From a virus, in the IMG/VR virus record IMGVR_UViG_3300010167_000022: 64,000 nt of DNA, one strand, 5' to 3'. The notes under the pieces are model-generated. The model was not told where the DNA came from, searched no databases, and saw only the letters and a list, made by a program, of their open reading frames with translations. The translations under genes and the position numbers were made by a program. Positions 6,166 through 35,791 of the stretch are shown in pieces. How positions within the stretch are numbered: the first letter of the stretch is position 1; every line of letters begins with the position of its first letter.

Positions 6166-6636
6166 CTAATCTAAATCAATAAATTTATATTCAAAAAATG
6201 TAGGAACTTGTTCTATTGATACGTTTGATATTGTAAATTTATCTTCTGCTATGCTATCCCATTTTACTATAGCGTTTTGAATTACTAGTTTAACTTCACG
6301 AAATGATTTATCATCAATACATTCAGTCATGATATCTAATATTACTTCACAATCATCTATTGGTGGTGCTTTAATAAAGTTTTGCAATCTTTCTTCTGCA
6401 TCAATAAATGCTTTTGTAATATTAATATTTAATGGTTTCATTATATCAAATGATAGTAGCCTTAATCTACTATTATATTGTTCTTGAACCCAATGATATT
6501 CTCCTTGTTGTAATACGCATCCTTTTAATCCTGACAAATATGCAAATCTTGATTTACAATGTGGATAAACAATCTCTATATTATTAATTGATCTAAATAC
6601 TAAATCACTTTTACTTATTTTATATTTATAGGACAT
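6166..6636 (-). CDS. hypothetical protein
   Basis: ORF 156 aa. Confidence 0.5.
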   Translation of the reverse strand: MSYKYKISKSDLVFRSINNIEIVYPHCKSRFAYLSGLKGCVLQQGEYHWVQEQYNSRLRLLSFDIMKPLNINITKAFIDAEERLQNFIKAPPIDDCEVILDIMTECIDDKSFREVKLVIQNAIVKWDSIAEDKFTISNVSIEQVPTFFEYKFIDLD

Positions 6637-8623: not shown

Positions 8624-9403
8624 TTAATCTCCGCAATGCTTATATGGGTTATATGGAAAATATGGCATTTTTGTCATCTTGTGAATTCCATCATTATGCA
8701 TTATTTGTATTTTAGCAACTACATCTGGATTAATTTCACCACCACGAAGGTATTTGTCTAATTCTGAATATGTAAATCTAAAATTCTCTTCGTCTGTTCT
8801 GCCAGTAAGACCATCCTCTGGCTTCTTAAATATTAAGTCATAATCAATACCAAGTGCCATTCCTATACGCACAACTTCATTGTTTGTTAGGCTTGCCAGC
8901 GGAGAAAAATCTCCAGCATCATCACCATACTTTGTATTCCACCCAAGATAATTTTCACTAAGATTACACGTATTAGCTACTCTGCCATTTATTTGAGCAG
9001 AAATAGCATATAACGTGGTCATTCTGATTCGAGCCGGGGTATTATTTGTAACAACTGAGTTAAGAAAATTATCATCGTCAGTACTTAATAGCTTATTAGA
9101 TACTTGACGATAAATTTCATTAACGGCATCGTATATATTGATAGTAATATTTTTAATGCCGAAGTATTTACATACTAATTCAGCAACATGCAAATCCCAC
9201 TGGCACCCTTGTGGCATGAGTACTCCGAATACTCTATCAGCGCCTAAAGCTTCAACACATAGCCCAGTAACGATTGTTGAATCTTTGCCGCCTGATATCC
9301 CAATAACAGCTTTGCTATTCATCCCATTTTTATTAAAATAATCTCTAATCCACTGTGCTAAATCGTCTTTAACCTTATCTTCATTAAATTTATACATTAG
9401 CAA
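8624..9403 (-). CDS. nadE: NH3-dependent NAD+ synthetase
   Basis: PP-loop ISGGKDST; RIRMTTLY, TKYGDDAGDFSPL and FTYSELDKYLRG align with E. coli NadE blocks; about 260 aa. Confidence 0.8.
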   Translation of the reverse strand: MLMYKFNEDKVKDDLAQWIRDYFNKNGMNSKAVIGISGGKDSTIVTGLCVEALGADRVFGVLMPQGCQWDLHVAELVCKYFGIKNITINIYDAVNEIYRQVSNKLLSTDDDNFLNSVVTNNTPARIRMTTLYAISAQINGRVANTCNLSENYLGWNTKYGDDAGDFSPLASLTNNEVVRIGMALGIDYDLIFKKPEDGLTGRTDEENFRFTYSELDKYLRGGEINPDVVAKIQIMHNDGIHKMTKMPYFPYNPYKHCGD

Positions 9404-10268
9404 CCCCCATTCTCCGCATTACAAGCCTTTCTGCTAATAACCGCGTCCTAACTATCATAAGAGCCTTACCCATCATATTCTTTCCAGCGCCATTATAAAC
9501 TCCCCAAAAATCATCGCCCCAATTGTTTGTTTCTTCCAAATATTTAAAGCCAGTGTTAAGTAGGAATGCTCTTAAATGTGCATTCTGAGAAAACTTATTA
9601 TATAATATCTCTTGAACAATCTTAACCTTTGTATCTTCCCATTCGTCTTTCATTGGGCATTGGTGACCATATTCTTTTGCCTTTGCAGGAGTAGGCGTAT
9701 TTAAAATCTTCTCTTTCCATTCTGAACAATCTGTTTTGTAATATTGTAATGCATGCTCTGCTGATTTAAATGTTATGCCATCCATTATAAATTTAGTTGT
9801 ATCAAAATTGCTTAATGGCCTATATTTCTCAAAGAATCCTTTAATATAATATTCTGTTACTTCTGTTTTATTATTGAGAACACCTGTATACTTAATAGAG
9901 CTTATGTCAAACATCGTATCAATAGGAATACGAGTCTGGCTTATTACACCTTCTTGTGTAAAATAAACTTGTATATCATCCTTCCAATATTCATTAATCT
10001 CATACTCATATAGATAGTATCCTGCGGTTTCCAATTCGTAGGCATCCATAACAGAGAACCAGAAGTTCATCTGCGACTTATCTTTGGCTCCACTATACCA
10101 ACGTTTCCCGTCTTTTCTGTATTTGTCGTCATGCCCCATTGGCATATCAGCGCAGCGTCCTTCTGTAAGTGTGTGAATAAATCCATTATAAGAGCCATCA
10201 GCGTTATACCACATACCATGTTGATTATCTTTGTGTGCTATACGATATGTTTTAATTGTTTCTTGCAA
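9390..10268 (-). CDS. NADAR (YbiA/DUF1768)-domain protein with an unassigned N-terminal domain of about 140 aa
   Basis: C-terminal FFEKYRPLSNFD...AEHALQYYK...GDDFWGVYNGAGKNMMGKALMIVR resembles NADAR; 14-nt overlap with nadE. Confidence 0.5.
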   Translation of the reverse strand: MQETIKTYRIAHKDNQHGMWYNADGSYNGFIHTLTEGRCADMPMGHDDKYRKDGKRWYSGAKDKSQMNFWFSVMDAYELETAGYYLYEYEINEYWKDDIQVYFTQEGVISQTRIPIDTMFDISSIKYTGVLNNKTEVTEYYIKGFFEKYRPLSNFDTTKFIMDGITFKSAEHALQYYKTDCSEWKEKILNTPTPAKAKEYGHQCPMKDEWEDTKVKIVQEILYNKFSQNAHLRAFLLNTGFKYLEETNNWGDDFWGVYNGAGKNMMGKALMIVRTRLLAERLVMRRMGVANV

Positions 10269-10307
10269 AAATCTTCACATCCTTTCAGTGTATTTATACA
10301 AATCTAA

Positions 10308-11888
10308 TCAAAACTTGCTATTCCATAATCTATTGCGAATAGTAGCGAAATCATCTATATTATATTGTTTGCCATCTACAAATTTCTTAACATATAAATT
10401 CCCTTCAAAATTAATAGCTTCTTCATATGTCAATTCATCTGTATATGTAATCTCGCCCAATGAATCATAATGTGCTGCAAAACAGCCTTTTTGTGATGCT
10501 TTAGCGCTATCCGTTTTTGGATTCTTTTGAATAGCAACTTCTATACCATCCATAATACAGCTAGTAGCTTTTATTGCATAACCACGGGTGTCCCGTGTGA
10601 CATATTGATAGCTTACTGAACCAATCCCAAAAAATATATTTTCTACAGATATTTTCATTTCAACACAACGTTTAAGAATTTTTTCTTGCCGTTCTCTTGT
10701 TATAGCATCTGCGTAAATCATTCTTATTTGTGAAGGAAGAACATCATACCCTTTTTTGTTTGTACTTACTCCAAATATTTTCTTTAATACTCGAAGACTG
10801 CCAATTTTTTCATACCATAAATCAGCAAGTGAATCACCACATGTAATCTTAATTGGATCGCCAGAATCGGCACGGATTACTAATGCGCCTTGTCTATTAC
10901 ATATATCATCTATTAACTTTGGTAGTATCCATGTAAGTACGCCCCAATAGTCATATGTGTCGGATACATAAGACAATGCGCCTTCTAGCTGTACATCTGT
11001 AATAAGGTATTTAATAACACACATTTCAGCGACTAGCTTAATATCAACTGGGCTACCATCTTCACGTTTAGAATTTTTATATTTATCCCATGTTATGCCT
11101 TTGTATTCTCCACCAGATAGTAACATATTTTCAAATTCTGCTATAAGTTGACATACAATGCTATGCTCTAAAGATGGAGTAGCCATATTAGTTAAGTCTT
11201 TTTCTATATCTGCGTTATAATATTTTTCTAAGAAATCTGCTGATCCCATTGTTGCTGATTTAGCAAACGATAATAAATGCCCTCCACTTGATGCCATGGC
11301 TGCTGATTCCATTTCAGCCATTCCACGCAAGCTAAAATCACTAATCATATATTTTGTTATATTTGTATCTTCGCATGTTATATCTACATATTTTTGTTGT
11401 AATGTTCTTCTATCATGCCCAGTTGTAGCAGATGTTGGAGGCATCCAGTTATGCGTTGACCATAAATCTTCAAGATACTGAGGTAGCCAACCAAAATCAG
11501 GATGTGTATTTCTAATCCAATGGTCTGGAACATTAACTGGGCAAAGTGTTCCTTCTGGCAACCCCCATATTTCGATTGGAAGATAGCCAAGCTCATAAAG
11601 TTTTCTAAATTTAGAAAAATCAGAATATCGTGGGCTAAAACATATAGAAACATTTCTTACATGTTTTTTCTCTAAATCATCTACATCCTTATAAAAGAAA
11701 TTATTATCAAACCAATCAATCATATATTGTTTGATTCTTGCTTGTTGCCCCCATATAACTGTATTTTTAGCTTCTTGCTGATACTTGTTATATCTTCCTG
11801 TCCAACCAGTAAATACATGGCTTACGCTTTTAGGTTGTAAAAAAGGATGGCAAATTTTATATCCGTCCACAATACCATATAGCCCCAT
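10308..11888 (-). CDS. nicotinamide phosphoribosyltransferase family (NAMPT/NadV, or Namat-like)
   Basis: 526 aa, size and overall sequence character of NAMPT; adjacent to the Prs-like gene. Confidence 0.7.
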   Translation of the reverse strand: MGLYGIVDGYKICHPFLQPKSVSHVFTGWTGRYNKYQQEAKNTVIWGQQARIKQYMIDWFDNNFFYKDVDDLEKKHVRNVSICFSPRYSDFSKFRKLYELGYLPIEIWGLPEGTLCPVNVPDHWIRNTHPDFGWLPQYLEDLWSTHNWMPPTSATTGHDRRTLQQKYVDITCEDTNITKYMISDFSLRGMAEMESAAMASSGGHLLSFAKSATMGSADFLEKYYNADIEKDLTNMATPSLEHSIVCQLIAEFENMLLSGGEYKGITWDKYKNSKREDGSPVDIKLVAEMCVIKYLITDVQLEGALSYVSDTYDYWGVLTWILPKLIDDICNRQGALVIRADSGDPIKITCGDSLADLWYEKIGSLRVLKKIFGVSTNKKGYDVLPSQIRMIYADAITRERQEKILKRCVEMKISVENIFFGIGSVSYQYVTRDTRGYAIKATSCIMDGIEVAIQKNPKTDSAKASQKGCFAAHYDSLGEITYTDELTYEEAINFEGNLYVKKFVDGKQYNIDDFATIRNRLWNSKF

Positions 11889-11901
11889 TTATTAACTCCT
11901 T

Positions 11902-12708
11902 TTAGTTATTTTGTAATATCTCAATTAACGGATGTTCCTCAGTGAATATAGAACGTGTTGTATATATCTTTTCTAATAATCCGCTATTAATAAGTTCACC
12001 ATTTAATATTGAATTCTCACAATGTGTGATGTATAAATATATCTTTCCAACACCCAGATTTTTTAGCTTCTTTGCTGCATATAGAAATGTTCCACCATAA
12101 CTGCAAATATCATCTGTTATTAAAATTGTTTTTCCTGTTAAGTTATGCTTTTTAGCACCTAGAACTTCTGTATCAAGTATATCTCCAGTATCCCAATTCC
12201 TATCCTTATACCCACAAATATTAGGATGCTTAATAAGATTTTCTAGTCGTTTCTTGCATCCAGAATCCGGGTAATAAAGCAAATCAGGAGTAGTCTTGTC
12301 AATAACTATATTCACAAATTTTAAATATCTATTAATATCTATATATACATTATTTATAATAGCTGGTGCTACTGGGGAATGTGGGTCAAGTATATATACA
12401 CGATCAAATCCTAATTCATTAATAACTCTTGCAAAGTATTTTAATGTAAATATATCATCTGGTTTTTCTATTCTATCTAACCTCGCATTTGGTGTATAGT
12501 CAAGATGAAGTGTGATTCGTGCATTTGGATTCTTTTCTTTTATATGCCAAACCAAATTTTGAAGAACGATTTGCTCTGTAAGGGTTTCGAAATCCCATGT
12601 CAACCTATATTGAATATTATTTATATCTTCATCTACCTTAAATCGCATTAGTAATGTCCCATCGGGGAAGAACCCGTATATATATTCTTCCCCATTCACT
12701 TTTATCAT
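11902..12708 (-). CDS. ribose-phosphate pyrophosphokinase homologue (Prs or ADPR-PP synthetase Adps-like)
   Basis: RITLHLDYTPNARLDR (Prs flexible-loop motif), VYILDPHS, PRPP-binding loop KTILITDDICSYGGT. Confidence 0.7.
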   Translation of the reverse strand: MIKVNGEEYIYGFFPDGTLLMRFKVDEDINNIQYRLTWDFETLTEQIVLQNLVWHIKEKNPNARITLHLDYTPNARLDRIEKPDDIFTLKYFARVINELGFDRVYILDPHSPVAPAIINNVYIDINRYLKFVNIVIDKTTPDLLYYPDSGCKKRLENLIKHPNICGYKDRNWDTGDILDTEVLGAKKHNLTGKTILITDDICSYGGTFLYAAKKLKNLGVGKIYLYITHCENSILNGELINSGLLEKIYTTRSIFTEEHPLIEILQNN

Positions 12709-12742
12709 TTACTTATCACATCCTATCACTTAATATTGCAAT

Positions 12743-13279
12743 CTATTGCTCGTCGTTAATAATATTTACTTGGCAACAACGCAATACTGTTAATGCCGCA
12801 AGATGGCTTTCTTCACTTACACATGCACAGCATGACGCATCTACGGTGATTTTTGTTTCTGGATACATTGCTTTAAGAATAAGTGCATTGGATACTACGC
12901 ATATGCCAGTGCATAAACCACATATTTCAATTTCATCTGCTGACATAAGCAGACTGTCAGTACAATCATTATCATTCCATCCCAAGTATCCAAATGTTGA
13001 TTTGTCGATTTTAATATCCATTTTATCTTCTAATCCGTCATATATATCCCATCCACCTGTACCTATCAAACAATGTGGGACAGGAAGATATTGCCCCTCT
13101 TGTGTATTCATATAATCGTCATTGTGCGTATCTCGTGTAAAAATAATGCTATTTTTATTTGAGCGATAATTATTAATTTTTTCTATTACATTAGGAGTAA
13201 TCTTCTGTGCCTGATCGCTCCCTAATGCCCCTGTTACAAAATCCTCTTGAACATCTACTACTATAAGAACCTTACTCAT
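12743..13279 (-). CDS. nicotinamidase / isochorismatase-family hydrolase (PncA-like)
   Basis: MSKVLIVVDVQEDF start; catalytic-Cys region ICGLCTGICV; 178 aa. Confidence 0.65.
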   Translation of the reverse strand: MSKVLIVVDVQEDFVTGALGSDQAQKITPNVIEKINNYRSNKNSIIFTRDTHNDDYMNTQEGQYLPVPHCLIGTGGWDIYDGLEDKMDIKIDKSTFGYLGWNDNDCTDSLLMSADEIEICGLCTGICVVSNALILKAMYPETKITVDASCCACVSEESHLAALTVLRCCQVNIINDEQ

Positions 13280-13323
13280 AAAATATTCTGCTCCTTTTTA
13301 TATATATTAATATGATATATTTT

Positions 13324-13647
13324 TTATTTTTCTAATTTTTGTTTGCCCGTTATACTATATCTATTGTATAATGACAAGTAGCTAATCCTTATATAATTAA
13401 AAAAACATTTTAGCATAACAATTCCAAATGCTAAATATGCAGATAAAAAGAATGATAAATATAAAGGCCATACTAAAACAACATAAAATGTATCTTGTTT
13501 AAAAACGGCATCATCTTCATAACTAATATCATTATTTTCTTCTTTAGAGTATATTATATCTAAATTGCCAAAATCTGACCATTTTATAGTCTCCCCAAAT
13601 AATAATGTCATATATCCGATTAATAAATATAAAACTATAAATGCCAT
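13324..13647 (-). CDS. small membrane protein
   Basis: ORF 107 aa with hydrophobic helices. Confidence 0.5.
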   Translation of the reverse strand: MAFIVLYLLIGYMTLLFGETIKWSDFGNLDIIYSKEENNDISYEDDAVFKQDTFYVVLVWPLYLSFFLSAYLAFGIVMLKCFFNYIRISYLSLYNRYSITGKQKLEK

Positions 13648-13701
13648 TTTATTCCATGTCTCCTTTCTAATATTTTTTGCTTTAGGATGTGCAATAAAAA
13701 C

Positions 13702-13730
13702 ATTATACTGTATCTATTGTATATTGTCAA
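13702..13730 (-). promoter_or_regulatory. perfect consensus sigma70 promoter TTGACA-N17-TATAAT
   Basis: revcomp reads acTTGACAatatacaatagatacagTATAATg; drives 13324..13647. Confidence 0.6.
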
Positions 13731-14020
13731 GTATATTATTTCTATGTGTTTGTATGCTCAATTCAGGACATATAATTTTATGTCATCAAGTGAATACACA
13801 ACCATTTATTATGCCGGGCAGCTTGTTTAATTATTAGGAAACTCCTATAGATATAAACAATTAACGGACTTGTTCTTCTAATATTTATCTAATAAATGTA
13901 TTGAAAATATATTTTTGTCGGTTACAGTTTAAAAGACTACAAAGCGCTTAAAACCCCTGAAATACAGCGTCTTATAAGAGATTAACAAGGATTGATTAAT
14001 CTTAAATAAGATATGTATTA

Positions 14021-14067
14021 CAGGACTTTGACTCCTGCACTCGAAGGTTCAAATCCTTCCAGCTCAG
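14021..14067 (+). other. 3' fragment of tRNA-Gln(UUG): anticodon arm, variable loop, T-arm and 3' acceptor strand; putative attP core
   Basis: CAGGA-cTTTGac-TCCTG anticodon arm; GAAGG-TTCAAAT-CCTTC T-arm; CAGCTCA acceptor 3' strand; no matching 5' half upstream; lies next to int. Confidence 0.55.
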
Positions 14068-14073
14068 TTCATG

Positions 14074-14110
14074 AAAAACCCCGTAGATATCATGTTTGCG
14101 GGGTTTTTTA
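14074..14110. terminator. bidirectional rho-independent terminator
   Basis: aaaaaCCCCG-N15-CGGGGtttttt; A-run before and T-run after the GC hairpin. Confidence 0.6.
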
Positions 14111-14186
14111 TTCCCCGTAATTACACATAAAAAACCGCTTTCTAATACTTTTCTAATAAACTGCAAATACCATTCTATTCCATTTA

Positions 14187-15329
14187 CTAGCCTTGCAAAA
14201 CGTTGGTTATACCATTTAACATCATTTTTTTAGCGGATGCCTCTAATTTGGCGTAAAGGTTCATAGTCGTTCCTATATCTCCATGTCCTAACCATGCTTG
14301 AATATCCTTTAAATTATAACCAAGCGCTAAAAGTAAAGAGGCTGAAGAGTGCCGCAAATCATGTAGCCGGATATGTCTCATATTATTTTTTTTCAACAGT
14401 TTCCTAAAAGCTACAGATATATAGTTTGGGTTAATTAATTCCCCAACATCATTTACACATATATACCCATCATAATCATAGCAATATGACATCCCAAAAA
14501 TTTCCTTATTGATTTCCTGCTTGGATTTTAGCTCTGTTAAAAACGCCATAAATGTATCATCTAGTGGCATTGTCCGATAGCTAGATTTTGTTTTTAAGGT
14601 GTCGGAAAATTCTAATCTATATTTGCCATCATCATTGATAGGGACTACCTTATGACCTATGAAAAATGTTCTGTTGACCCAATCTACTGCACTCCACTTT
14701 AATCCAACAATTTCAGAACGTCGCAGACCAAAATATATGGCGAACATCAAAGGAGTTTCGATTGGTGAACATTTAATAACCCCCAAGAGAGTTGCAATTT
14801 CATCCTTGTTATAGAAATCGCCTATAAATTTCTGCTTTTTTGGCCTTTCTACAAAATCAGCAGGATTCTCTTTTATTGCACGTGTTTTTTTCGCATATTG
14901 TAGGGCAGTCCTTATAAGCGTAAGGTGTTTTATAACAGTGTTAGGACTTACAAACTTTAACTTATAAGTACAATAGGCTTGGATATGTTTGGTTGTTAAA
15001 TCTAGTAAACATATTCCTTTTTGATTAAAATACGGATGTATTTGTTTTAATAATCGCTTATACCCCGCATAAGTTATAGCTTCTACATTTGCCCGGTGCA
15101 TTTCAAGCCAGTCTGTAAGAAAATCACAGAATAGAATCCTAGTATCTTGCACATTCTGAACATCGCTATATTCTTCAATTTTTTGTTTTAGGAATTGATC
15201 TGCTTTTTTCTTATTCCCTATAATGGTATAACCTGTGCTAATCCATTTCTGGGTTTGTTTCCCACCGCTGTTAAAACATATAACAGCATAATACTTATTG
15301 TTCTTTTTTTGCAAGCTTCCAGTCGTCAC
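14187..15329 (-). CDS. int: tyrosine integrase (GTG start)
   Basis: C-terminal HDLRHSSASLLLALGYNLKDIQAWLGHGDIGTTMNLYAK (HxxR...Y); AAGGAGGG RBS. Confidence 0.85.
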   Translation of the reverse strand: MTTGSLQKKNNKYYAVICFNSGGKQTQKWISTGYTIIGNKKKADQFLKQKIEEYSDVQNVQDTRILFCDFLTDWLEMHRANVEAITYAGYKRLLKQIHPYFNQKGICLLDLTTKHIQAYCTYKLKFVSPNTVIKHLTLIRTALQYAKKTRAIKENPADFVERPKKQKFIGDFYNKDEIATLLGVIKCSPIETPLMFAIYFGLRRSEIVGLKWSAVDWVNRTFFIGHKVVPINDDGKYRLEFSDTLKTKSSYRTMPLDDTFMAFLTELKSKQEINKEIFGMSYCYDYDGYICVNDVGELINPNYISVAFRKLLKKNNMRHIRLHDLRHSSASLLLALGYNLKDIQAWLGHGDIGTTMNLYAKLEASAKKMMLNGITNVLQG

Positions 15330-15411
15330 TCTAAACCCTCCTTATTTTGACGAAGAAAGCCCGTTAATTGTAGTAATAATTATATCATTAACAGGCCAAT
15401 TGTAAATAAAA

Positions 15412-15615
15412 TCACAGATTTTCCAACAAATAGGCGAGTACACAAATCTTAGGTATAATATATGTCTTGCCTATTCGCTTGTGCTTTATTTGCCCGGTTT
15501 TAAGTAATTCATATGCTTTATTACGTCCGATTAATAGCATTTGTTGAAGCTGTAACACATTAAGACAATCAGGGTAGTTATTAAACATTTCATTATTTTT
15601 TAATTGAGCATTCAT
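15412..15615 (-). CDS. xis: excisionase / HTH DNA-binding protein (Xis-like); start placed at the internal ATG after a GAAGGAG RBS
   Basis: LQLQQMLLIGRNKAYELLKTGQIKHKRIGKTYIIPK helix-turn-helix; the track's N-terminal extension reads through the upstream hairpin. Confidence 0.55.
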   Translation of the reverse strand: MNAQLKNNEMFNNYPDCLNVLQLQQMLLIGRNKAYELLKTGQIKHKRIGKTYIIPKICVLAYLLENL

Positions 15616-15629
15616 AATTTCGCTCCTTC

Positions 15630-15666
15630 GTGAACTACCCATCCCCTTAAGGGGATGGGATTTCTC
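15630..15666 (-). promoter_or_regulatory. GC-rich hairpin leader element (9-bp stem CCCATCCCC / GGGGATGGG) with TAGTTCAC flank
   Basis: gtgaactacccatccccttaaggggatgggatttctc, immediately 5' of the xis RBS on the mRNA. Confidence 0.35.
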
Positions 15667-15705
15667 TACGTTGGTTTTAAAAAGCATCTATTCTTTATAT
15701 CAATC

Positions 15706-16074
15706 TTAATTAACATCAATATCTACATTAATTTCTTTCCACTTTTTATTTAAGTATTTATTTATATTATTTAGAATTGATTTGTTTTTATCATTTCTTA
15801 TTGACATATTTTTATCATTTATAAACTTATTTTTTAATTCATTGTAAACAATTTTTTCCATATCAAGCTCCTGTATTTTGCTCAAAGCATCTTCAAGGCT
15901 ATCATACCATATACAAATAGAATGCGTTCTATCATCATTAGAAAATATTGTATAAGATTGATTGATTGTTCTCCATTTGAATTCTATAAAAAGCATGTAT
16001 TCGCCATTATATTTAATTGACTGTATTAATTCAGATTTGTATTTAATATAATATTCCATACTACACACCTCCAA
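15706..16074 (-). CDS. hypothetical protein
   Basis: ORF 122 aa. Confidence 0.5.
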   Translation of the reverse strand: MEVCSMEYYIKYKSELIQSIKYNGEYMLFIEFKWRTINQSYTIFSNDDRTHSICIWYDSLEDALSKIQELDMEKIVYNELKNKFINDKNMSIRNDKNKSILNNINKYLNKKWKEINVDIDVN

Positions 16075-16164
16075 TCTAATATGTAGTTTTTTGATTGCAA
16101 CGTATTTTTTAATTGTATTACATAAACACTAAATAGCTAGTTTCCACTTCTAGCAGCATTGTCA

Positions 16165-16836
16165 TCATACATCATAGGCGGAAGCACAATAACTTGTTCC
16201 GTTAATACAACAATCAACACTTAAAGAATAAGGAGTAAAATTGTTATTCTTTAAATCCTCACCAAATGCTGTAACATGTTGTAAAATTAGTTTATTAAAC
16301 ACTACAATTTCCTCATCCGAAAAGACTTTTTCAGTGCGTTTTTTAATAATGACTTGCTTATAGTTTTCTGTTAGCGGAGGTAATTCTTCTACCCATGCTA
16401 ATACGTTAATTACATCTGTTAATATTGCTTTATGTATTTGCATCTGAGGAACACTATTGTACACATTATCTATGTAATAACCTTGGCAAAAATCTTTACC
16501 TATTCGTGTATGCTTCTCTTCCCAAAAATCATCTTTCCCTGCGCTCCACCCATCTGGAAGACTGTCAAATTTAATATATCTATCGAAACTTATATATGCA
16601 CTAGGACAGCTATCATACGAATGCCCTGAACAACAATTTGTTGTATTGTACCCTTTTTTGTTTAACTCAATTATAATAGGTGCATACATTTCATCAACTG
16701 CCACAACAACCCCAATACAGCTTGTTTTAGGACACCAATATCGGCCATCATCTTTTCCGTTCTTTCCATATGGATTCAATTTATCAATTAATGACCCGCT
16801 ATATATTTCATAGCATTGTGTACAAACTAAAACCAT
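16165..16836 (-). CDS. hypothetical Cys-rich protein
   Basis: ORF 223 aa. Confidence 0.5.
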   Translation of the reverse strand: MVLVCTQCYEIYSGSLIDKLNPYGKNGKDDGRYWCPKTSCIGVVVAVDEMYAPIIIELNKKGYNTTNCCSGHSYDSCPSAYISFDRYIKFDSLPDGWSAGKDDFWEEKHTRIGKDFCQGYYIDNVYNSVPQMQIHKAILTDVINVLAWVEELPPLTENYKQVIIKKRTEKVFSDEEIVVFNKLILQHVTAFGEDLKNNNFTPYSLSVDCCINGTSYCASAYDV

Positions 16837-16842
16837 ATTCGT

Positions 16843-17154
16843 TCACTCCTTCTGTACTATATTAATAAATTTATAGTTATCACTATAATTGTTATATTGC
16901 ATAACAAGTATATAATCTCCAATTTCTACAATACGTGGACTTACAACTGCTTGGTATATTACATTAACAACTATTCTATTTCCATCTATATCAGCTATAA
17001 ATGCTATTGGCTTATACTTGTTATCAATATCAATTCTTGTAACTATAGCAATTTGCATTGCGTTTTCATCATAATCATCGGATTTATCACACCAATTTGT
17101 AGATAGTACAATAATAAATGCTATTACTAAAACAATCTTAAAAAACTCCATCAT
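16843..17154 (-). CDS. small secreted protein (signal peptide)
   Basis: ORF 103 aa; MMEFFKIVLVIAFIIVLSTNWC. Confidence 0.45.
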   Translation of the reverse strand: MMEFFKIVLVIAFIIVLSTNWCDKSDDYDENAMQIAIVTRIDIDNKYKPIAFIADIDGNRIVVNVIYQAVVSPRIVEIGDYILVMQYNNYSDNYKFINIVQKE

Positions 17155-18538
17155 TATTCTCCATCACAAGATTATATTTGTATACAACAAATGCAATTAA
17201 ACTCTCTTTGTTATTTTTGTCTGGATTATCAATTACATATTCTAAGCAATTATTTAATATCTCTCCCAGTATCTTTCCTTGTACAAATCCAATGTTGATA
17301 AGGTCATATCCATTAATAGCTAAATCTCGTATTGTGAAAGCTTCGTTGTTAAATAATATGTCATGCCATATTGTTTTAATCTCAGAAACCTTACAAACCC
17401 ATTTATCATATTCGCCAGATCCCCACCTATGTGCCTTTTTATCAATTAGCTGGAATGCGAACAATTTTATGCATAAATCATGTCCTAACTTATTCAACAA
17501 CTTCTTTGCCACATTGCGTGTTGGCTGCAGCACAAAATCATGTGCTTCAACAAGTTTTAAAACTATTTCAATTGTTTTGTTGTCAAATCGCATCCGATGC
17601 ATAATCTCTTGTGCCATTTTAACAGAATATATTTCATGTCCATAGTAGTGATTAGTTAACCGCTTATCATCAAACACACGCGCTTTAAGTTTCCCTATAT
17701 CATGTAGGAGTATTGTCATTATCAACTCAATATCGTCTGTATAGCCAAAAAATATCATATCCATAGTATGAGTAAATACATCCGTATAATGCCATATGTT
17801 ATTATGTGTTATTTGAGCAAGCCCTATAAACTCCGGTATAATACGTTTAATTATATACTCAATCATACCGCGAAGTTTAGGATAATGATAAGTATCTTTG
17901 TCTAACTTATTTATAGCACATAATATTTTTACTATCTCTGCATTTTTACGTTCCATTGAGATATTTTTAAGATTATCACCACACTCAAAAATCGCATTAA
18001 TGACTTCTTTTGAAATATCAAAATCTAAAGTAGTAGCAAATCTAATTGCTCTCATTATACGTAATGCATTTTCATTAAACCTGTTCTCTGCGTTCCCAAC
18101 AGTCTTTATTATTTTATTTTTTAAATCAGATTGTCCGCCAAATAAATCAATAATCCCATATTCATCATTATATGCCATAGCATTAATAGAAAAATCCCGG
18201 CGGCATAAATCATCTTTAATAGTATTTGAAAAATTTACTGCATTTGGTCTCCTTCCATCTCCATATGACCCATCAGCACGATAAGTGGTTATTTCATATG
18301 ATACTTTATTTAATAACACAGTCATTGTTCCATACTTCTCACCAGTTGGTATTAAGTAATATGAACTAAAAATTTCTTTTATTTCATTAGGCATTGCGTT
18401 TGTGGCTATATCCCAGTCTTTAGGCACTACTCCCAATAACGAATCTCTAACACATCCGCCTACAATATACGCTTCAAATCCATTATTATTAAGTTCGCAC
18501 ATTATATTTCGAACATCTATTGGAAGATTGATTTCCAA
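17138..18538 (-). CDS. cca: tRNA nucleotidyltransferase (CCA-adding enzyme) with C-terminal HD domain
   Basis: GGCVRDSLLG head motif near the N-terminus; LLHDIGK HD motif; 466 aa. Confidence 0.8.
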   Translation of the reverse strand: MEINLPIDVRNIMCELNNNGFEAYIVGGCVRDSLLGVVPKDWDIATNAMPNEIKEIFSSYYLIPTGEKYGTMTVLLNKVSYEITTYRADGSYGDGRRPNAVNFSNTIKDDLCRRDFSINAMAYNDEYGIIDLFGGQSDLKNKIIKTVGNAENRFNENALRIMRAIRFATTLDFDISKEVINAIFECGDNLKNISMERKNAEIVKILCAINKLDKDTYHYPKLRGMIEYIIKRIIPEFIGLAQITHNNIWHYTDVFTHTMDMIFFGYTDDIELIMTILLHDIGKLKARVFDDKRLTNHYYGHEIYSVKMAQEIMHRMRFDNKTIEIVLKLVEAHDFVLQPTRNVAKKLLNKLGHDLCIKLFAFQLIDKKAHRWGSGEYDKWVCKVSEIKTIWHDILFNNEAFTIRDLAINGYDLINIGFVQGKILGEILNNCLEYVIDNPDKNNKESLIAFVVYKYNLVMENNDGVF

Positions 18539-18605
18539 TTATATCACAGCCTTTATTATCTTTTATACTTTCTTATAACAATTGAGCCAATTTAATCACC
18601 TATAT

Positions 18606-19106
18606 TTATAACAATTTTATTTCATGTTTATCAAAAACTTTATATGCATTTATTACAAAAACAGTTTCTTTAAATTTTTCACAAAAGGCTTTCGCATCGT
18701 ATTCTGTATCAAAAAATTTAAAACATTCATATGTAATTGCACTGTAATAATTTAAAAGCACTTTTGATTTTTCATTTATAATAGTAAATATATCTATATC
18801 ATAATCCTCATCAATATATGTAGATACTTTCCCATTTTCAGGGTAGCATTTATCAAACCATGTTAAACATGGGTTATGATTGTCGTCATAAAAGTCTGAT
18901 TTAGCAACAGTCTTATTAAATTCTAAAAACTCATTCATGCTAAAATCTAATCTATAGCTGCCAGCACCAACATATGATATAGAAGTAAGATATGCTTTCA
19001 TCTTTTCATTTTGATAATTTTCTCCATCATCTATTTTATCTGTAAACTGAACTGCAATTGGTTCTCCATTATCTTTTATCATTTTTATTAATTCTTTTAT
19101 ATGCAT
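18606..19106 (-). CDS. hypothetical protein
   Basis: ORF 166 aa. Confidence 0.5.
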   Translation of the reverse strand: MHIKELIKMIKDNGEPIAVQFTDKIDDGENYQNEKMKAYLTSISYVGAGSYRLDFSMNEFLEFNKTVAKSDFYDDNHNPCLTWFDKCYPENGKVSTYIDEDYDIDIFTIINEKSKVLLNYYSAITYECFKFFDTEYDAKAFCEKFKETVFVINAYKVFDKHEIKLL

Positions 19107-19132
19107 TTAAACACTCCAATAATATTAAATAT

Positions 19133-19543
19133 TTATAAAATATTCATATATTCCAAAAATTTTCTCGGATAATTTATTGATGGAGAAAGCATCTTAAAAA
19201 GCAACGCTAATAATTCTTCTTTATAATATTCATGTGCCGTTGTATAATACATTTTATCTGTACATAACGCATAAGAACCATATATACTTGGGTGTTTTTT
19301 GAATAATGATTTTTCGTTTTCAAATAATGAAATGAGCGAATCACTGTTAAAATTCCTAATAATCGGGCCACAATCAGCATATGATAGCAAATATGTATAT
19401 TCAATAATATCCGCTGGCGTGATATAAATATTTTCTAATCTATACTGTGTTGAATTACATTCACTATTATATTTTATTACTGTATCTGTAATAGCACTAA
19501 ATAAACCTATTATAGCTATTTCCTTGTTAACTAATATGCACAT
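19133..19543 (-). CDS. hypothetical protein
   Basis: ORF 136 aa. Confidence 0.5.
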   Translation of the reverse strand: MCILVNKEIAIIGLFSAITDTVIKYNSECNSTQYRLENIYITPADIIEYTYLLSYADCGPIIRNFNSDSLISLFENEKSLFKKHPSIYGSYALCTDKMYYTTAHEYYKEELLALLFKMLSPSINYPRKFLEYMNIL

Positions 19544-19692
19544 TTTTCAACTCCTTGATTACATCCTATATTTGCTTTTTCTTTACTAGCTATATAGTCT
19601 TATTTATTTCTCTAAAATATATTCGACGCAATTTTCATTGTATTTAGATACAATACATGTTGCAAATTTTACAATCCACCCATCCATTGATG

Positions 19693-20136
19693 CTAACAGT
19701 ATATTTTTGACTTCGGTGTCATTCCTCTGTGACAACACAATACCTCATAATCAGTCCTTGCATCAATAAGCGTCCACTGGATGAAGAACTCGTATTCTGG
19801 ATTGTTCTTCTCGACAACGTTTTTCAAGTATGCCATAATTGTGTCTACTACCTTATCTTGCATGCCTCGTGCATTCTTTACTGAGAATTTTAGCGATGGA
19901 TTTCTTTTGTTATATTCCTTATCGAAATTATATGTAACACGATTTTCATATACGATATTCCCATCGTCATAATAGTGAATACCGAAGTGATTGCAATAGA
20001 GTTTTTCGTTCTTATTGAAGTCGCACCTATATTCTTTGCAATAGTATTCGCGCTCGAACTCAATTTTGAAGTTGGCTAAACAGTCGTTGATAAATTGCTT
20101 ACGTGCCTTATGTTGCTTATATAAATTGATAATCAT
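19693..20136 (-). CDS. hypothetical protein, possibly an HNH-type homing endonuclease; locally GC-richer than neighbours
   Basis: ORF 147 aa; Cys/His pattern YRCDFNKNEKLYCNHFGIHYYDDGN; composition shift visible by eye. Confidence 0.4.
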   Translation of the reverse strand: MIINLYKQHKARKQFINDCLANFKIEFEREYYCKEYRCDFNKNEKLYCNHFGIHYYDDGNIVYENRVTYNFDKEYNKRNPSLKFSVKNARGMQDKVVDTIMAYLKNVVEKNNPEYEFFIQWTLIDARTDYEVLCCHRGMTPKSKIYC

Positions 20137-20920: not shown

Positions 20921-20948
20921 TTTTAATAGAATGCCTGTTCTATTCAGA
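20921..20948. promoter_or_regulatory. PeSL-like palindromic intergenic element
   Basis: ttttaatagaatgcctgttctattcaga; overlaps the stop codon of the upstream gene. Confidence 0.55.
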
Positions 20949-21602
20949 CTTGTATGACTTGTAGACTCTATTATTTAACCAGATAGCAATAGAGTCAAGG
21001 TTCTGAAATACTTTGCCGCCATTCTCTATAACCATTATTGCAACAGCCCTAAGAGACTTAATTTCATCATTATCAAACGTAAGTCCATCATCTTCTTCTA
21101 AAAAACAAAACAATGTTTTTTCTGGTCGCTTATTGCTGTCATCTACTACTTCAGCAATTGAAAATACACCATGCATTTTTGGAGTGATCACATATAAGCA
21201 ATAGTCGCACTCTTCACGCTGTTTGCATTCTTCTACCATACACTCTGGAGTCCAATCATCAACAACAGGGTTAAAATAGCCTATTTTTAACATGCTTATT
21301 AGTAAATCTCTCCAAGTGCTATTATTACATGTACCGCCTAAGAATACTTTTTTCTTTTTCGCATCTTTTCTTTCAAATAAATATTCAGGCCATAAAAGTG
21401 TCCCACCATCTTCTTTTATCTCATACACTATACGATTCATCTTTTTTATTACTCTGCTAATTGTTACAATTTTTCCTTTGAATTTCCCCATTGGTGGGAC
21501 ACAATGTTTTGTTCCACCATCAATCTCATAAGTGAAATCTTTTCTTATTATTAAAACATCTCCAATATTATATAATGGAGTTAATATTGTTCCATCATTC
21601 AT
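20940..21602 (-). CDS. nucleoside 2-deoxyribosyltransferase-like (Rcl/DUF4406-fold) protein with an N-terminal beta domain
   Basis: KKVFLGGTCNNSTW...CDYCLYVITPKMHGVFSIAEVVDD resembles the NDT family core with its catalytic Glu. Confidence 0.35.
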   Translation of the reverse strand: MNDGTILTPLYNIGDVLIIRKDFTYEIDGGTKHCVPPMGKFKGKIVTISRVIKKMNRIVYEIKEDGGTLLWPEYLFERKDAKKKKVFLGGTCNNSTWRDLLISMLKIGYFNPVVDDWTPECMVEECKQREECDYCLYVITPKMHGVFSIAEVVDDSNKRPEKTLFCFLEEDDGLTFDNDEIKSLRAVAIMVIENGGKVFQNLDSIAIWLNNRVYKSYKSE

Positions 21603-21617
21603 TATGATAACGCCCTT

Positions 21618-22931
21618 TTAATTATAATCTATTATTTCTTGTGCTTCTTCAATATCAGGTGATGTAGCTGAGTCTTTAATAATTCCCTCAATAACTTTGA
21701 AGTGCCAGTTTTTATGCTTAAATGCTGTAAATCTTTCTCTGTTTTCAATTCTAACAACTATGCCTTCTTTTATATGTGTTTTACCAATTGGATCGAACCC
21801 ATCACAATATTTATTTGCATGCTCCATAAGATCTTCAAATGTTGTATAAGTAAAACGTTCATATGTAGGACAATACCTAACCCCCATTTGTTCGCAACGA
21901 AGCTTCACTAATCCATATGGATACTCAACTACATAGCCATCCTCATTTGTAATTGTCATTCTATATACATAGGTTTGGCTCTCACCGTCATCACAACCAT
22001 ATGAAAAACGTGTCTTGTCACCATATTGTTTAATGAATTCTTTATCATTAACTTTTTTATTCGAGCAATCTGCCATTATAGGAGTGTTGGGGGAAACATA
22101 TCCAACAACCTCATAATAAACAGTTTCACCTTTTTGAAGTTTGCCAACAAATCTGTCATGATGCCGTTGTCGAAAAGCATTACTTCCATAGTAGCCACCA
22201 TTTAAGTCTTTTAGCACAACTCTTCTTGTTCCGCATACATATTCCCATGATTTTTTAATTTTAGGTAACAATCTTAACGCTTTAAATATTTTAACTAACC
22301 AATATGGCAAATATTTTCTTGTCTCTTTTAATGTATAAGATGTGCGTTGTGAGGTTCCATGCATCTTTAAAGTAATTTCACACTGATCTCCTTCTTTAAA
22401 AGCGTTTTTATTATATACAAGCTGTGATGTATCATAATGTTCCATAAATAAGGGAAAACTTGTTTTATCATATATTTTTTTAGATTTCTCTTTATTTTTC
22501 CCCACACTTTGTCTACGATGTTTGCCCATAGGAATATACTTTTCACAAATTAAAAGTCCATTTAATATAGTTATAGAATCTCCTTCATTAAGTATAGAAA
22601 CATCTGTAAATTTATTAAGTGAAATCAATGGCATAAATAAACCATCGCTCATTTCACCTCTTAGTTTTATAGCTTTAATATTTCGCTTTTCAGGATCAAG
22701 AAATCCACCTATTTGATTTCCATCTGCATCTTTATTACGTAGAAGATTATTTGCCGCGCAATACTCATTGCATAGTTTACCATCTATTGGGAAATAAATT
22801 CCTAATTCATCTTCTGATATATTTGTACTTACTATAACGTTGTTTCCAAAACACTCTCCAATCAGGAGTTTATCAGCATTTGTATGTCTTCTTAAGTTTT
22901 TTATTCTTGTTATATATGCGCAATAAGCCAT
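21618..22931 (-). CDS. ATP-dependent RNA ligase (Rnl2/Rnl5-like, with an N-terminal extension)
   Basis: nucleotidyltransferase motif I LKMHGTSQR (KxHGxx) at about aa 190; 437 aa. Confidence 0.6.
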   Translation of the reverse strand: MAYCAYITRIKNLRRHTNADKLLIGECFGNNVIVSTNISEDELGIYFPIDGKLCNEYCAANNLLRNKDADGNQIGGFLDPEKRNIKAIKLRGEMSDGLFMPLISLNKFTDVSILNEGDSITILNGLLICEKYIPMGKHRRQSVGKNKEKSKKIYDKTSFPLFMEHYDTSQLVYNKNAFKEGDQCEITLKMHGTSQRTSYTLKETRKYLPYWLVKIFKALRLLPKIKKSWEYVCGTRRVVLKDLNGGYYGSNAFRQRHHDRFVGKLQKGETVYYEVVGYVSPNTPIMADCSNKKVNDKEFIKQYGDKTRFSYGCDDGESQTYVYRMTITNEDGYVVEYPYGLVKLRCEQMGVRYCPTYERFTYTTFEDLMEHANKYCDGFDPIGKTHIKEGIVVRIENRERFTAFKHKNWHFKVIEGIIKDSATSPDIEEAQEIIDYN

Positions 22932-26593: not shown

Positions 26594-26622
26594 ATTATAA
26601 TATAACGTTTGTATATTGTCAA
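26594..26622 (-). promoter_or_regulatory. perfect consensus sigma70 promoter TTGACA-N17-TATAAT
   Basis: revcomp reads tacTTGACAatatacaaacgttatatTATAAT. Confidence 0.6.
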
Positions 26623-27088: not shown

Positions 27089-28189
27089 TTATCCAATATC
27101 TCTATAAATTACATTTCGCAATATATCTCTGCGTATAGATACGCTTAATAATTTTGCGCTTGCCGCTGAACATGCATTGTTGTATCCTTCATCGTGACTT
27201 GCCCGGTCATCATTTGTATTAAAAAATCCTTTAACCCTCTCTGCGAAGTCTTCTGCGCTTATACATCTCTGAATAGCAATTATAGCCATGTACATTAATG
27301 AAACCATGTGCGTTTTTCTATTCTTTATTTTATTAGACATTTTTTTCATGTCTGCCATAATAACAAAGAATGTCTTCATATAGTCAAGTGCTTTTGTCAT
27401 TTCTTCTTCCTGCTCAGGAGTTATTTCTTGCGTCCAAAGAATATGTCTTCCGTTTTTATCGTTCATCAATGAATGGTTACTAGCGTATGCCATTATTGCT
27501 GCATCTGCCGGAATATCTTCGTCTTCCAACTTCTTTTTCTTACTATCCTTTAATACACTGGCTATCCCCGGAAGTTTTGCAAGTTTAATGAATATATGTC
27601 TACTGCATATTCTTATACGGGAAAAGTCAGCAGGGGATATAGGTTTGTTGCTATTTATTTCAATGAAAAAATTAACCTTCTCTTCATGTGTCATATTAAA
27701 AAATGTAAAAGATAATAATACAGTTGATTTTAACTTATCCTGTATATCAGTAGGTAAGTCTTTAAAATATAGTCGTGCTATTACAAAATCTTCAGCAACT
27801 CCATCTTTTTCTACACGTATAGGTGGAACATCTTTATGGATAGAAAATTCTCCATGAATAAATCCTGAGATTGTTCTAATCCTCTGCTGTCCGTCTAACG
27901 CTTCGCTAGTCTTTTCAGCTTTGTTGAAGTACAATGGTGGTATTTGGACACCTCTTATTAAGGCGCGAATAAACATTCCTTTAACAATAGGATGCCAAAC
28001 ATCACCACGTTGTTCTAAAATATCTGTAATAATAGTTCTGTTTTTAAATTTGTTTGCAACACTTGATACACTCATATCAACCTTGCTTGACTCAGGTTCT
28101 ATTACTACATATACTGGCTTTACAACATGCTCGGGCACTATCATATTTGATTTTTCTTTTGCTTTTGCTTTTGTTCTTGCTGCTGGCAT
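27089..28189 (-). CDS. DUF262 / ParB-like nuclease-domain protein (GmrS-like N-terminal domain)
   Basis: LDGQQRIRTISGF (DGQQR signature motif); 366 aa. Confidence 0.55.
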   Translation of the reverse strand: MPAARTKAKAKEKSNMIVPEHVVKPVYVVIEPESSKVDMSVSSVANKFKNRTIITDILEQRGDVWHPIVKGMFIRALIRGVQIPPLYFNKAEKTSEALDGQQRIRTISGFIHGEFSIHKDVPPIRVEKDGVAEDFVIARLYFKDLPTDIQDKLKSTVLLSFTFFNMTHEEKVNFFIEINSNKPISPADFSRIRICSRHIFIKLAKLPGIASVLKDSKKKKLEDEDIPADAAIMAYASNHSLMNDKNGRHILWTQEITPEQEEEMTKALDYMKTFFVIMADMKKMSNKIKNRKTHMVSLMYMAIIAIQRCISAEDFAERVKGFFNTNDDRASHDEGYNNACSAASAKLLSVSIRRDILRNVIYRDIG

Positions 28190-28223: not shown

Positions 28224-29279
28224 TTAAGATGTGTAACCAAATGCATACTTCCAATCGCTATAATCTTTCCTCCATCTCAATAATTTTAACATCAACTCTC
28301 CTTTGTCATTATACTCAACACGAAGATGATATGCAAGATATTTTGCAATTTCATATTCATAATTATCAATATCAGATGTAATTTTTACACCATTTATTTC
28401 TCCTTTTAGCTCACACTGATATAATCTATGAAATACACCTGATATGCGAACAGTAGAAGGAGATAGCTGTTCGCTTGATTTTGAAGTCTTATATATAACA
28501 CGTATAATACGATTTAATGAAGATAACGGAATCTGTGTTTGCTGTGTTCTTGCATTTTGCCTTAATTGTGGTCGTATTAAGTAGTCGTTATCTATTAGAG
28601 GAATCATTATATATTCTTCTGTTGTTGATTTTGTTGATCTTTCCGCCTGTGCATTTTTCTTTTCTATTCCATCAACATCTTGAAATCTAAGCCACAAATC
28701 AACTGTCTCGTCAGATAACTTTACAATATATCCACCCCCCAGCGTTATTGAATTTGTATTTAAATCAAGATCGGATTTTTTTAAATCTACAATATCATTG
28801 AATGTTAACCCGTCAAAAACCAAATGTAATACTAAACTATTTCGCATAGATGCATTAGGATAATTAACTGTATCAAGTCCATTAAAAATAATAGTTTTAA
28901 GCTGTTCATAATCCCCTAGCATCTTACTAGTGATTGTGCTTTTTTCTTTTAATGCATCTACAGTCATTATGTCAAAAGCCTTTTTGTCTTTTGTAATCCC
29001 CTTTACTAACAAAGCCCACGATGCATATCCTCTCATTGATGCTAAAAAATGAGATATTGATAAATCTCGTCTTATCCCTAGTGATAAAAATGCTATTTTT
29101 AATTCATCGTAAGTCATAAATATTATATCTGTACCATTATCGCCAGTTGAAACCTCTGCATCGTATAGTCGTTTAAAATAGTTTTCCAATGCAATTTTAT
29201 TGCTTTCCTTTTTTTCAAAATCAATGTACTCTTCTTTCAAATTCCTGTTAAACATTAATGTCCTAACTTGTTTACCCAC
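28224..29279 (-). CDS. hypothetical protein, possibly a degenerate tyrosine-recombinase-like fold
   Basis: 351 aa; RNSLVLHLVFDGLTFNDIVDLKKSDLD resembles recombinase box I; ...GVFHRLYQ...YLAYH; very uncertain. Confidence 0.45.
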   Translation of the reverse strand: MGKQVRTLMFNRNLKEEYIDFEKKESNKIALENYFKRLYDAEVSTGDNGTDIIFMTYDELKIAFLSLGIRRDLSISHFLASMRGYASWALLVKGITKDKKAFDIMTVDALKEKSTITSKMLGDYEQLKTIIFNGLDTVNYPNASMRNSLVLHLVFDGLTFNDIVDLKKSDLDLNTNSITLGGGYIVKLSDETVDLWLRFQDVDGIEKKNAQAERSTKSTTEEYIMIPLIDNDYLIRPQLRQNARTQQTQIPLSSLNRIIRVIYKTSKSSEQLSPSTVRISGVFHRLYQCELKGEINGVKITSDIDNYEYEIAKYLAYHLRVEYNDKGELMLKLLRWRKDYSDWKYAFGYTS

Positions 29280-35762: not shown

Positions 35763-35791
35763 ATTATACCATATCTATTGTTTATTGTCAA
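35763..35791 (-). promoter_or_regulatory. perfect consensus sigma70 promoter TTGACA-N17-TATAAT
   Basis: revcomp reads catTTGACAataaacaatagatatggTATAAT. Confidence 0.6.

Follow-up and report, generated by a model that had tools for sequence, protein, structure and literature searches.

We analysed a 64,000-nucleotide stretch of viral DNA, IMG/VR record IMGVR_UViG_3300010167_000022 (hereinafter the window, meaning this whole stretch), which has a G + C (GC) content of 28.9% and open reading frames (ORFs) that lie almost all on the minus strand. Between a GC-rich hairpin and a consensus promoter it holds a compact integration cassette, which occupies the gap between two transcription units and comprises a tyrosine integrase gene (int), a gene for a predicted excisionase (xis) and a phage attachment site (attP) whose core is a copy of the 3′ part of a bacterial tRNA-Gln(UUG) gene. 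As we interpret it, the cassette would read in the order xis, the promoter belonging to int, int, P′ arm, terminator, core and P arm. Its features and its two borders are listed here by position, with the offsets of the arm repeats counted from GAAGGTTC in the T arm:

13702-13730, minus strand: perfect sigma-70-type promoter (TTGACA, 17-nt spacer, TATAAT; 12/12 match), reading into a 107-aa ORF and the NAD-salvage genes
13877-13894, plus strand: putative P arm, two direct TCTAATA repeats 11 bp apart (offsets −166/−155), predicted arm-type sites
14020-14068, plus strand: attP core, 49 nt identical to the 3′ part of the host tRNA-Gln(UUG) gene
14026-14039, plus strand: probable strand-exchange segment CTTTGACTCCTGCA (anticodon loop and 3′ anticodon stem), placed by homology to the element at locus L018 described below
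14071-14111, both strands: hairpin terminator, a 19-bp stem followed by a T-run, between core and P′ arm
14141-14158, plus strand: putative P′ arm, two direct TCTAATA repeats 11 bp apart (offsets +98/+109), predicted arm-type sites
14187-15329, minus strand: int, tyrosine integrase of 380 aa with a GTG start after an AAGGAGG ribosome-binding site
15379-15406, minus strand: candidate promoter in the xis-int gap, serving int only (TTTACA-16-TGaTATAAT; extended −10, 11/12 match)
15412-15615, minus strand: xis, excisionase-type HTH_17 protein of 67 aa, stopping 82 nt before int
15638-15659, both strands: GC-rich palindromic hairpin upstream of xis (−22.5 kcal/mol, z = −4.6)

The core runs from the base before the anticodon stem through the anticodon stem-loop (CAGGA-CTTTGAC-TCCTG, anticodon UUG), the variable loop, the T arm and the 3′ acceptor strand to the discriminator G and one further T, and it is present in the window as a single copy. 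ARAGORN recovered no tRNA gene from the entire 64-kb window, and the sequence 5′ of position 14020 can form neither an acceptor nor a D arm and differs from the 5′ half of the host gene. The Rfam tRNA model matches 14003-14059 (29.2 bits against a gathering score of 29; model positions 8-63), an alignment in which the anticodon and T arms are strong, the D-arm region is weakly tRNA-like and the 5′ acceptor strand is absent. When we scanned a 47-nt exact pattern from the core against one genome per species (185,579 species), it matched just three, all of them metagenome-assembled genomes (MAGs) of termite-gut Defluviitaleaceae (L001-L003), which derive from the P1 gut compartments of Labiotermes, Cornitermes and Embiratermes (PMC7024585). 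Alignment to the three MAG genes extended the match to 49/49 consecutive identical bases, in each case inside a complete tRNA-Gln(UUG) gene and with unrelated flanks. For comparison, shuffles of the window put the expected number of matches at 0 even for a 22-nt sub-pattern of the core, and we rejected a chance tRNA-like fold in view of the 49/49 identity to the host gene. A first-pass annotation, made from the letters of the window alone, had read this stretch as a 47-nt 3′ fragment of tRNA-Gln(UUG) that lacks a 5′ half upstream and serves as attP core, and had proposed comparing it with host tRNA-Gln genes. The identity of the fragment, the missing 5′ half (ARAGORN being blank and the left flank unlike the host 5′ half) and its role as core all withstand that comparison, the last through the exact host match together with the integrase relatives found at full tRNA-Gln genes; only the length changes, the exact block being 49 nt.

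The integrase call of the same annotation is likewise upheld. The predicted protein contains a Phage_integrase catalytic domain (PF00589; residues 176-363; 78.3 bits against a cutoff of 27.1, 7.6e-22) and SAM-like core-binding domains at residues 67-157 (PF13102, 35.3 bits; PF14659, 32.3 bits), and matches the integrase family phrog_1 (7.6e-69). Aligned to 3NKH and to the Tn1549 Int (6EMY), it displays all six catalytic residues (R203, K246, H323, R326, H349 and Y359). Its N-terminus aligns from residue 6 with the integrase of the Clostridioides difficile phage LIBA6276, and the reading frame is free of stop codons and frameshifts in a genome of 29% GC. A candidate for a distinct integrase, P0122, was discarded: it is the same protein, with M instead of V at the start codon. 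Upstream of int, the extended −10 box of the candidate promoter (TATGnTATAAT) is invariant in the five related cassettes that we aligned (from four elements), which suggests that int may be expressible without xis. The −10 box of this promoter is bracketed by an inverted repeat, GCCyGyT ... AGyGGGC, followed by a T-rich tract (~15345-15395, minus strand), which the phage shares with every related cassette; the repeat might act as an operator, or might attenuate transcripts that read through from xis.

Xis belongs to the helix-turn-helix family HTH_17 (PF12728; 30.2 bits against a cutoff of 27) and is 64-73% identical to the Xis proteins of mobile elements found at tRNA-Gln genes, making it the predicted excisionase of the cassette. 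The longest ORF encoding the HTH_17 domain is 91 aa (15412-15687, minus strand) and contains the strong hairpin; the ATG at 15615 is preceded by a GAAGGAG ribosome-binding site, and the homologous Xis proteins begin at the same place. Since the hairpin falls inside the 91-aa frame and is followed by this ribosome-binding site and ATG, in agreement with the starts of the homologues, translation most likely begins at 15615 and yields the 67-aa protein; the excisionase reported in the first-pass annotation is thus present, whereas the 91-aa extent is not retained. The hairpin itself probably ends the upstream phage transcription unit and would mark the upstream boundary of the cassette. At the opposite border, the perfect promoter has two further perfect copies in the window (26594-26622 and 35763-35791), all three on the minus strand with a shared spacer (TTGACAATAwACAAwAG...), and allowing up to one mismatch the TTGACA-17-TATAAT pattern occurs at eight sites against 3.2 expected. 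As the three perfect copies have similar spacers, we assign this promoter to a family of the phage itself; it flanks the cassette without forming part of it. Accordingly, the consensus promoter earlier counted within the integration module does exist, but it is a minus-strand promoter directed away from attP, towards the NAD genes.

Protein searches with Int recovered a tight group of homologues at 73-80% identity, besides weaker matches to Clostridia integrases. We looked up four members of this group, which led to seven loci (L016-L022) from the same termite samples, with the following gene content:

L016 and L017: MobC, relaxase, HTH_17 and int
L018 and the short fragment L019: Rep, FtsK/SpoIIIE, HTH_17 and int
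L020, L021 and L022: Rep, HTH_17 and int

These loci agree with integrative mobilizable elements as defined in the literature (PMC5704250), and ordinary bacterial genes lie beside the element in L016, L017 and L018. In five of the seven (L016, L017, L018, L020 and L022), the int stop codon is followed, after 120-140 nt, by a full tRNA-Gln(UUG) gene that is convergent with int. The window presents the same arrangement minus the 5′ half of the tRNA, so that the check for the same int/attP arrangement in relatives, which had been proposed with the first-pass annotation, came out positive. The clade to which the phage integrase belongs therefore integrates at tRNA-Gln. Both ends are visible in the ~8-kb element of L018, where the full tRNA is int-proximal and a 43-nt direct repeat of the core, beginning at CTTTGAC in the anticodon loop, is distal. 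The two copies differ at a single variable-loop base (equivalent to 14040 of the window), with T, the element-side form, in the proximal copy and C, the form of unoccupied hosts, in the distal copy; this difference places the crossover of the element 5′ of that base, within CTTTGACTCCTGCA, and by homology the phage crossover would fall at 14026-14039. At one end of L021 (11260-11400), int is followed by a tRNA 3′ fragment that starts from CTTTGAC, with neither a 5′ half nor P-arm repeats opposite; this end could reflect an atypical excised form, or else a second element joined in tandem.

The resemblance to these elements extends over the whole cassette: nucleotide homology of ~71% is contiguous from 14020 to ~15600 and stops at the xis start. 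The phage shares with the elements their target tRNA, convergent int and tRNA, a homologous terminator, the TCTAATA offsets and the extended −10 box. It differs from them in that they hold relaxase/MobC or Rep/FtsK genes, measure ~8 kb where delimited (L018) and are integrated, whereas the phage has just a 1.8-kb cassette in attP form; no relaxase, Rep or coupling-protein gene adjoins the phage xis in family scans of the window proteins. Its core also carries the "C" variable-loop variant, which is the form of the candidate hosts and not the "T" of the sampled elements, and reaches 6 nt further 5′ than the elements' repeat. Given that its closest relatives are cassettes of elements at the same tRNA-Gln site in related bacteria, we consider the phage and mobilizable-element cassettes, on sequence comparison, to share a common origin.

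The same comparison brought out the probable arms of attP. The int-distal junction of L018 has a TCTAATA pair at exactly −166/−155, as in the phage, and the int-proximal junctions of L016, L018, L020, L021 and L022 have one at +97 to +110. Conservation of these positions across ~30% nucleotide divergence argues that the pairs are arm-type Int binding sites. The terminator between core and P′ arm is homologous in all relatives, its stem being kept via two covarying pairs, and it folds at −23.5 kcal/mol (z = −7.0) on the plus strand versus −12.7 kcal/mol (z = −2.1) on the minus strand. Being far stronger in the tRNA direction, it fits a role in ending the transcript of the tRNA as rebuilt after integration. 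The first-pass annotation had described a bidirectional GC hairpin terminator here; both its presence and its bidirectionality are borne out, but its two directions are far from equal in strength.

We also gauged the age of the cassette. Between the phage and the elements, the proportion of synonymous differences in int (pS) is 0.82-0.89, that is, synonymous sites are saturated, while that of nonsynonymous differences (pN) is 0.135-0.152. The GC content at third codon positions (GC3) is 0.31 in the phage int, 0.45-0.46 in the int genes of the elements and 0.18-0.26 in neighboring phage genes, and the GC content of the cassette as a whole is above that of its surroundings. Saturated pS combined with low pN and an intermediate GC3 indicates long residence with a conserved protein, and by these measures the cassette appears to be neither a recent insert nor in decay, having evolved for long in an AT-rich genome under purifying selection.

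The bacterial side of the reaction could be examined in the matching MAGs. The tRNA-Gln gene of L001 is flanked by MgtE and LytR genes, and that of L003 by genes for alanine dehydrogenase and an EPSP-synthase-family protein; lying between housekeeping genes, they represent unoccupied bacterial attachment sites (attB). Convergent ORFs beside these two tRNAs were briefly entertained as integrases and rejected, as they are the LytR and EPSP-synthase-family host genes. In L002, the tRNA is followed by a different, 3.1-kb element with a repressor-like HTH_3 gene and a 25%-identical integrase, at whose far end the tRNA 3′ end recurs as a partial copy (6597-6632). A scan of JGI metagenome contigs with the 49-mer added nine matches, each a complete tRNA-Gln gene in a termite-gut sample; downstream of them, at least seven distinct flanking sequences occur. 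Thus, the tRNA-Gln(UUG) gene of these bacteria is an insertion hot spot. The locus L015 has a full tRNA-Gln and a hairpin, followed by a 48-aa integrase C-terminal remnant that is 75% identical over the 32 aa aligned, and by this likeness it is taken to be a fossil junction left by the same integrase clade. The remnant directly abuts an ORF (370-516 and 93-416, respectively) resembling, by eye, the C-terminus of a conjugative coupling protein; the fossil junction looks like one overwritten by another element.

The carrier of the cassette is a very large phage. In five independent contigs, drawn from several samples, the cassette sequence recurs at 99.995-100% identity and is flanked by phage genes to its left and right. 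According to database metadata, the longest contig encoding the identical integrase protein measures 225,398 bp (JGI) and a second carrying contig 162,153 bp (ENA), giving a phage of at least 162-225 kb and making it a candidate jumbo phage (>200 kb), with the proviso that the 225-kb contig may be incomplete or redundant. Genes beyond the start of the window encode an AAA_24 protein, an SPbeta YorH-domain protein, a PD-(D/E)XK nuclease and a DnaE-type polymerase. The DnaE is 58.8% identical in amino acid sequence to those of the C. difficile phages LIBA6276 and LIBA2945 (132-134 kb), and judged by this protein the phiCD211-like C. difficile phages appear to be the nearest known phages. The assignment of the carrier as a phage draws on this DnaE likeness, the SPbeta YorH domain and matches to phage RNA ligase and FtsK PHROGs. 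Since phage genes surround it in the five contigs and the 5′ tRNA half is absent, the locus is in the attP or episomal form and is no prophage junction, as the first-pass annotation had surmised. Its premise that large phages with auxiliary genes are usually strictly lytic is weak: the nearest phages by DnaE are temperate and carry integrases, which renders an integrase here less surprising.

Taking these observations together, we favor with reasonable confidence the reading that the locus is an intact and apparently functional lambda-type attP-int-xis cassette of a very large termite-gut phage, caught in its unintegrated form, with the tRNA-Gln(UUG) gene of Defluviitaleaceae as its target. 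In this scheme, Int made from the promoter between xis and int would bind the paired TCTAATA arm sites and the core, and would carry out recombination between attP and the 3′ portion of the tRNA-Gln(UUG) gene on a Defluviitaleaceae chromosome, the strand exchange probably taking place in or beside the anticodon loop. Since the 49-nt core equals the host sequence, the tRNA would be rebuilt from the host 5′ half and the phage 3′ half, and the phage would bring a new terminator directly after it. The resulting prophage, through which the phage would lysogenise its host, is expected to have int and xis at one end and the NAD-salvage genes at the other, transcribed towards the interior from the promoter at 13730; excision would be carried out jointly by Int and Xis. 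The predicted prophage junctions are, for attL, GGTAAGGC followed by the 49-nt core and TCATGAAAAACCCCG, and for attR, AAGATATGTATT followed by the core and the sequence downstream in the host (TAACGTGAAACGCTG for the L001 type and TTTTAAAAAATCCCC for the L003 type).

Outside the cassette, the window encodes further genes that bear on how the phage might live, all on the minus strand:

8624-13279: contiguous NAD+ block directly downstream of the promoter that borders attP, with genes for NAD synthase, a NADAR/T4-Y00F protein, a NAPRTase-family protein (526 aa), a PRPP-synthetase-like protein and an isochorismatase/PncA-like protein
17138-18538: CCA-adding enzyme with an HD domain
20940-21602: nucleoside 2-deoxyribosyltransferase-like protein
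21618-22931: RNA ligase (phrog_968, 2.2e-68)
27089-28189: GmrSD_N-like nuclease-domain protein
28224-29279: second recombinase-like protein (MrpR_N_CB core-binding domain; phrog_5830 "integrase")
29800-30996: adjacent FtsK/SpoIIIE-like translocase (2.6e-47)

The GmrSD_N-like protein, RNA ligase, CCA-adding enzyme and deoxyribosyltransferase-like protein constitute an RNA-repair and nucleotide toolkit resembling that of phiCD211-like phages (RtcB and peptidyl-tRNA hydrolase). The second recombinase-like protein has no match to a catalytic domain in Pfam; together with the FtsK-like translocase, it could form a multimer-resolution or segregation system of the episomal form. Upstream of the cassette lies a 223-aa cysteine-rich protein (16165-16836, minus strand), with one 122-aa ORF between it and xis, for which a search of 5.8 billion proteins returned no homologue but itself. 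A megablast of window positions 9000-20000 against 50,697 phage records gave no match, and in the search for sister phages the IMG/VR matches to the CCA enzyme and NadV were merely 35-41% identical.

Several observations weigh against integration into the host tRNA gene. No attL or attR of this phage was recovered: a pattern joining the host 5′ half, the core and the phage right arm had 0 matches in the JGI metagenome contigs, the nine core matches there are all ordinary tRNA genes with no hybrid among them, and the core pattern had 0 matches in the IMG/VR collection searched. These junction negatives are weak, as the JGI and IMG/VR collections searched are without even the phage's own attP. 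Every contig with the locus is in attP form or broken inside the core. Such a break occurs in the Logan assembly of SRR10512951, where contig L108 (7324-14068) ends at 14068 and contig L006 (14039-19775) starts at 14039, the two overlapping by 30 nt, as expected for k = 31. The break indicates a second sequence sharing the core in that sample; as it cannot separate attB from attR, we rejected it as evidence of integration. Residues 1-70 of Int have no Pfam match even at E = 10, leaving an arm-binding domain unconfirmed by that database. No repressor or structural gene was identified within the 64-kb window: no structural gene is found among the ORFs of the sequence examined (window and flank), and a Pfam scan of 70 further window ORFs, only 5 of which matched a Pfam family, yielded no repressor, partition or structural family. 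Further, the GC content of the phage (29%) is 11-16 points under that of the candidate host loci (40-45%).

Two more such points also speak for an alternative in which the cassette is intact and the phage is mainly a circular plasmid-like prophage whose Int rarely or never integrates, perhaps serving occasional integration or multimer resolution. The group to which its DnaE is 58.8% identical (LIBA6276/LIBA2945), the phiCD211-like phages, encodes integrases and is nevertheless reported as extrachromosomal plasmids (PMC6127314), and the FtsK/SpoIIIE-like translocase and the second recombinase-like gene in the window could serve episomal maintenance; the contigs seen, all in attP form, agree with this as well. 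Yet a multimer resolvase needs neither a 49-nt tRNA copy, nor a terminator in the tRNA direction, nor arm sites at conserved offsets, nor an excisionase, and the integrase clade demonstrably integrates at tRNA-Gln; we accordingly rate this alternative as unlikely, while giving it more weight than any other competitor. It is also conceivable, if highly unlikely in our estimate, that the cassette is a passenger, namely a piece of some mobilizable element that, once excised, entered the phage genome by recombination and does the phage no service. It is true that int, xis and both att arms find their nearest relatives in cassettes of mobilizable elements and not of phages, that the cassette sits between transcription units in the gap from hairpin to phage promoter, and that its GC content exceeds that of its surroundings. 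A useless fragment is nonetheless hard to square with saturated synonymous sites against ~14-15% protein change, with the lack of any stop or frameshift and with a GC3 that has moved partway to the phage value; the promoter box, both ribosome-binding sites and all four arm repeats have been kept, and the core is the "C" variant of hosts, 6 nt longer on its 5′ side, instead of the "T" variant of elements.

Least probable of all, to the point of being scarcely credible, is the idea that a mobile element has inserted itself into a tRNA-Gln gene of the phage, or that a decayed phage tRNA has come to lie beside an integrase by chance. Large phages often carry tRNA genes, and the weak alignment of D-arm positions upstream of the core by the Rfam tRNA model might be read as a remnant of one. 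Against this, a full tRNA is absent from the 64 kb, and the single copy of the core delimits no insert. The int-proximal junction of the integrated relatives has a complete tRNA, whereas here the 3′ part stands alone; moreover, no replication or mobilization genes lie beside xis. The nested integrative element that the first-pass annotation had raised as a possibility is not supported, for these same reasons: one core copy, no full tRNA and no rep or mob genes. An intact phage cassette directed at the host tRNA-Gln gene thus stands as the reading that we prefer.

On that reading, the cassette takes its place among the lambda-type modules that target tRNA 3′ ends, such as those of P4, P22, HP1 and mycobacteriophage L5. 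Like them, it combines a tyrosine integrase and a small excisionase with a complex attP, in which a core copied from a tRNA 3′ end is flanked by arm sites; the comparison is by description and not by integrase sequence, and the present system differs in its target, the tRNA-Gln(UUG) of Defluviitaleaceae, and in a far larger carrier. Insertion of Tn916-family elements takes place at AT-rich sites and involves variable coupling sequences, whereas the present integrase clade is specific to a tRNA gene and leaves a long exact repeat. Despite low sequence similarity, the Tn916/Tn1549 integrases are the best matches of solved structure (PDB 6EMY/6EMZ/6EN0; 3NKH; E ~1e-10): their core-binding and catalytic domains align, the R, K, HxxR, H and Y residues are conserved, and they too have an HTH-type Xis partner. 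The phiCD211-like phages are temperate, have genomes of 131-134 kb and are usually reported as an extrachromosomal plasmid (PMC6127314). Beyond DnaE, they resemble the present phage in that the replication genes are preceded by a long run of small genes, all in one direction, that includes tRNA-related functions. In LIBA6276 this run holds RtcB and peptidyl-tRNA hydrolase genes; the LIBA6276 integrase has the same overall architecture and is 31% identical over its full length. The NAD-salvage block and the position of the integrase are not shared in the region examined.

The mechanism proposed here is a textbook one, and the value of the case lies not in new biology but in the size of the carrier, the linkage to a host, the inference of lifestyle and the shared hot spot. 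Through the exact attP/attB match, an uncultivated phage that has hardly any relatives in the databases can be assigned a host from sequence, and the prediction is a member of the Defluviitaleaceae in the P1 gut compartment of higher termites. The case also documents an integration cassette common to mobilizable elements and a phage. A more speculative extension, for which we hold out little expectation, is that a phage of at least 225 kb lysogenises Defluviitaleaceae at tRNA-Gln with an element-shared cassette, and that phage and elements engage in cross-talk at one crowded attB, a possibility raised by Int and Xis proteins that are 64-80% identical and by identical arm sites. Were this true, the phage Int and Xis could excise or displace resident elements or form tandem arrays with them, and the elements could in turn block phage integration. 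Finally, as the phage is predicted to be temperate, its NAD-salvage and RNA-repair genes could come to reside in the chromosomes of its hosts.

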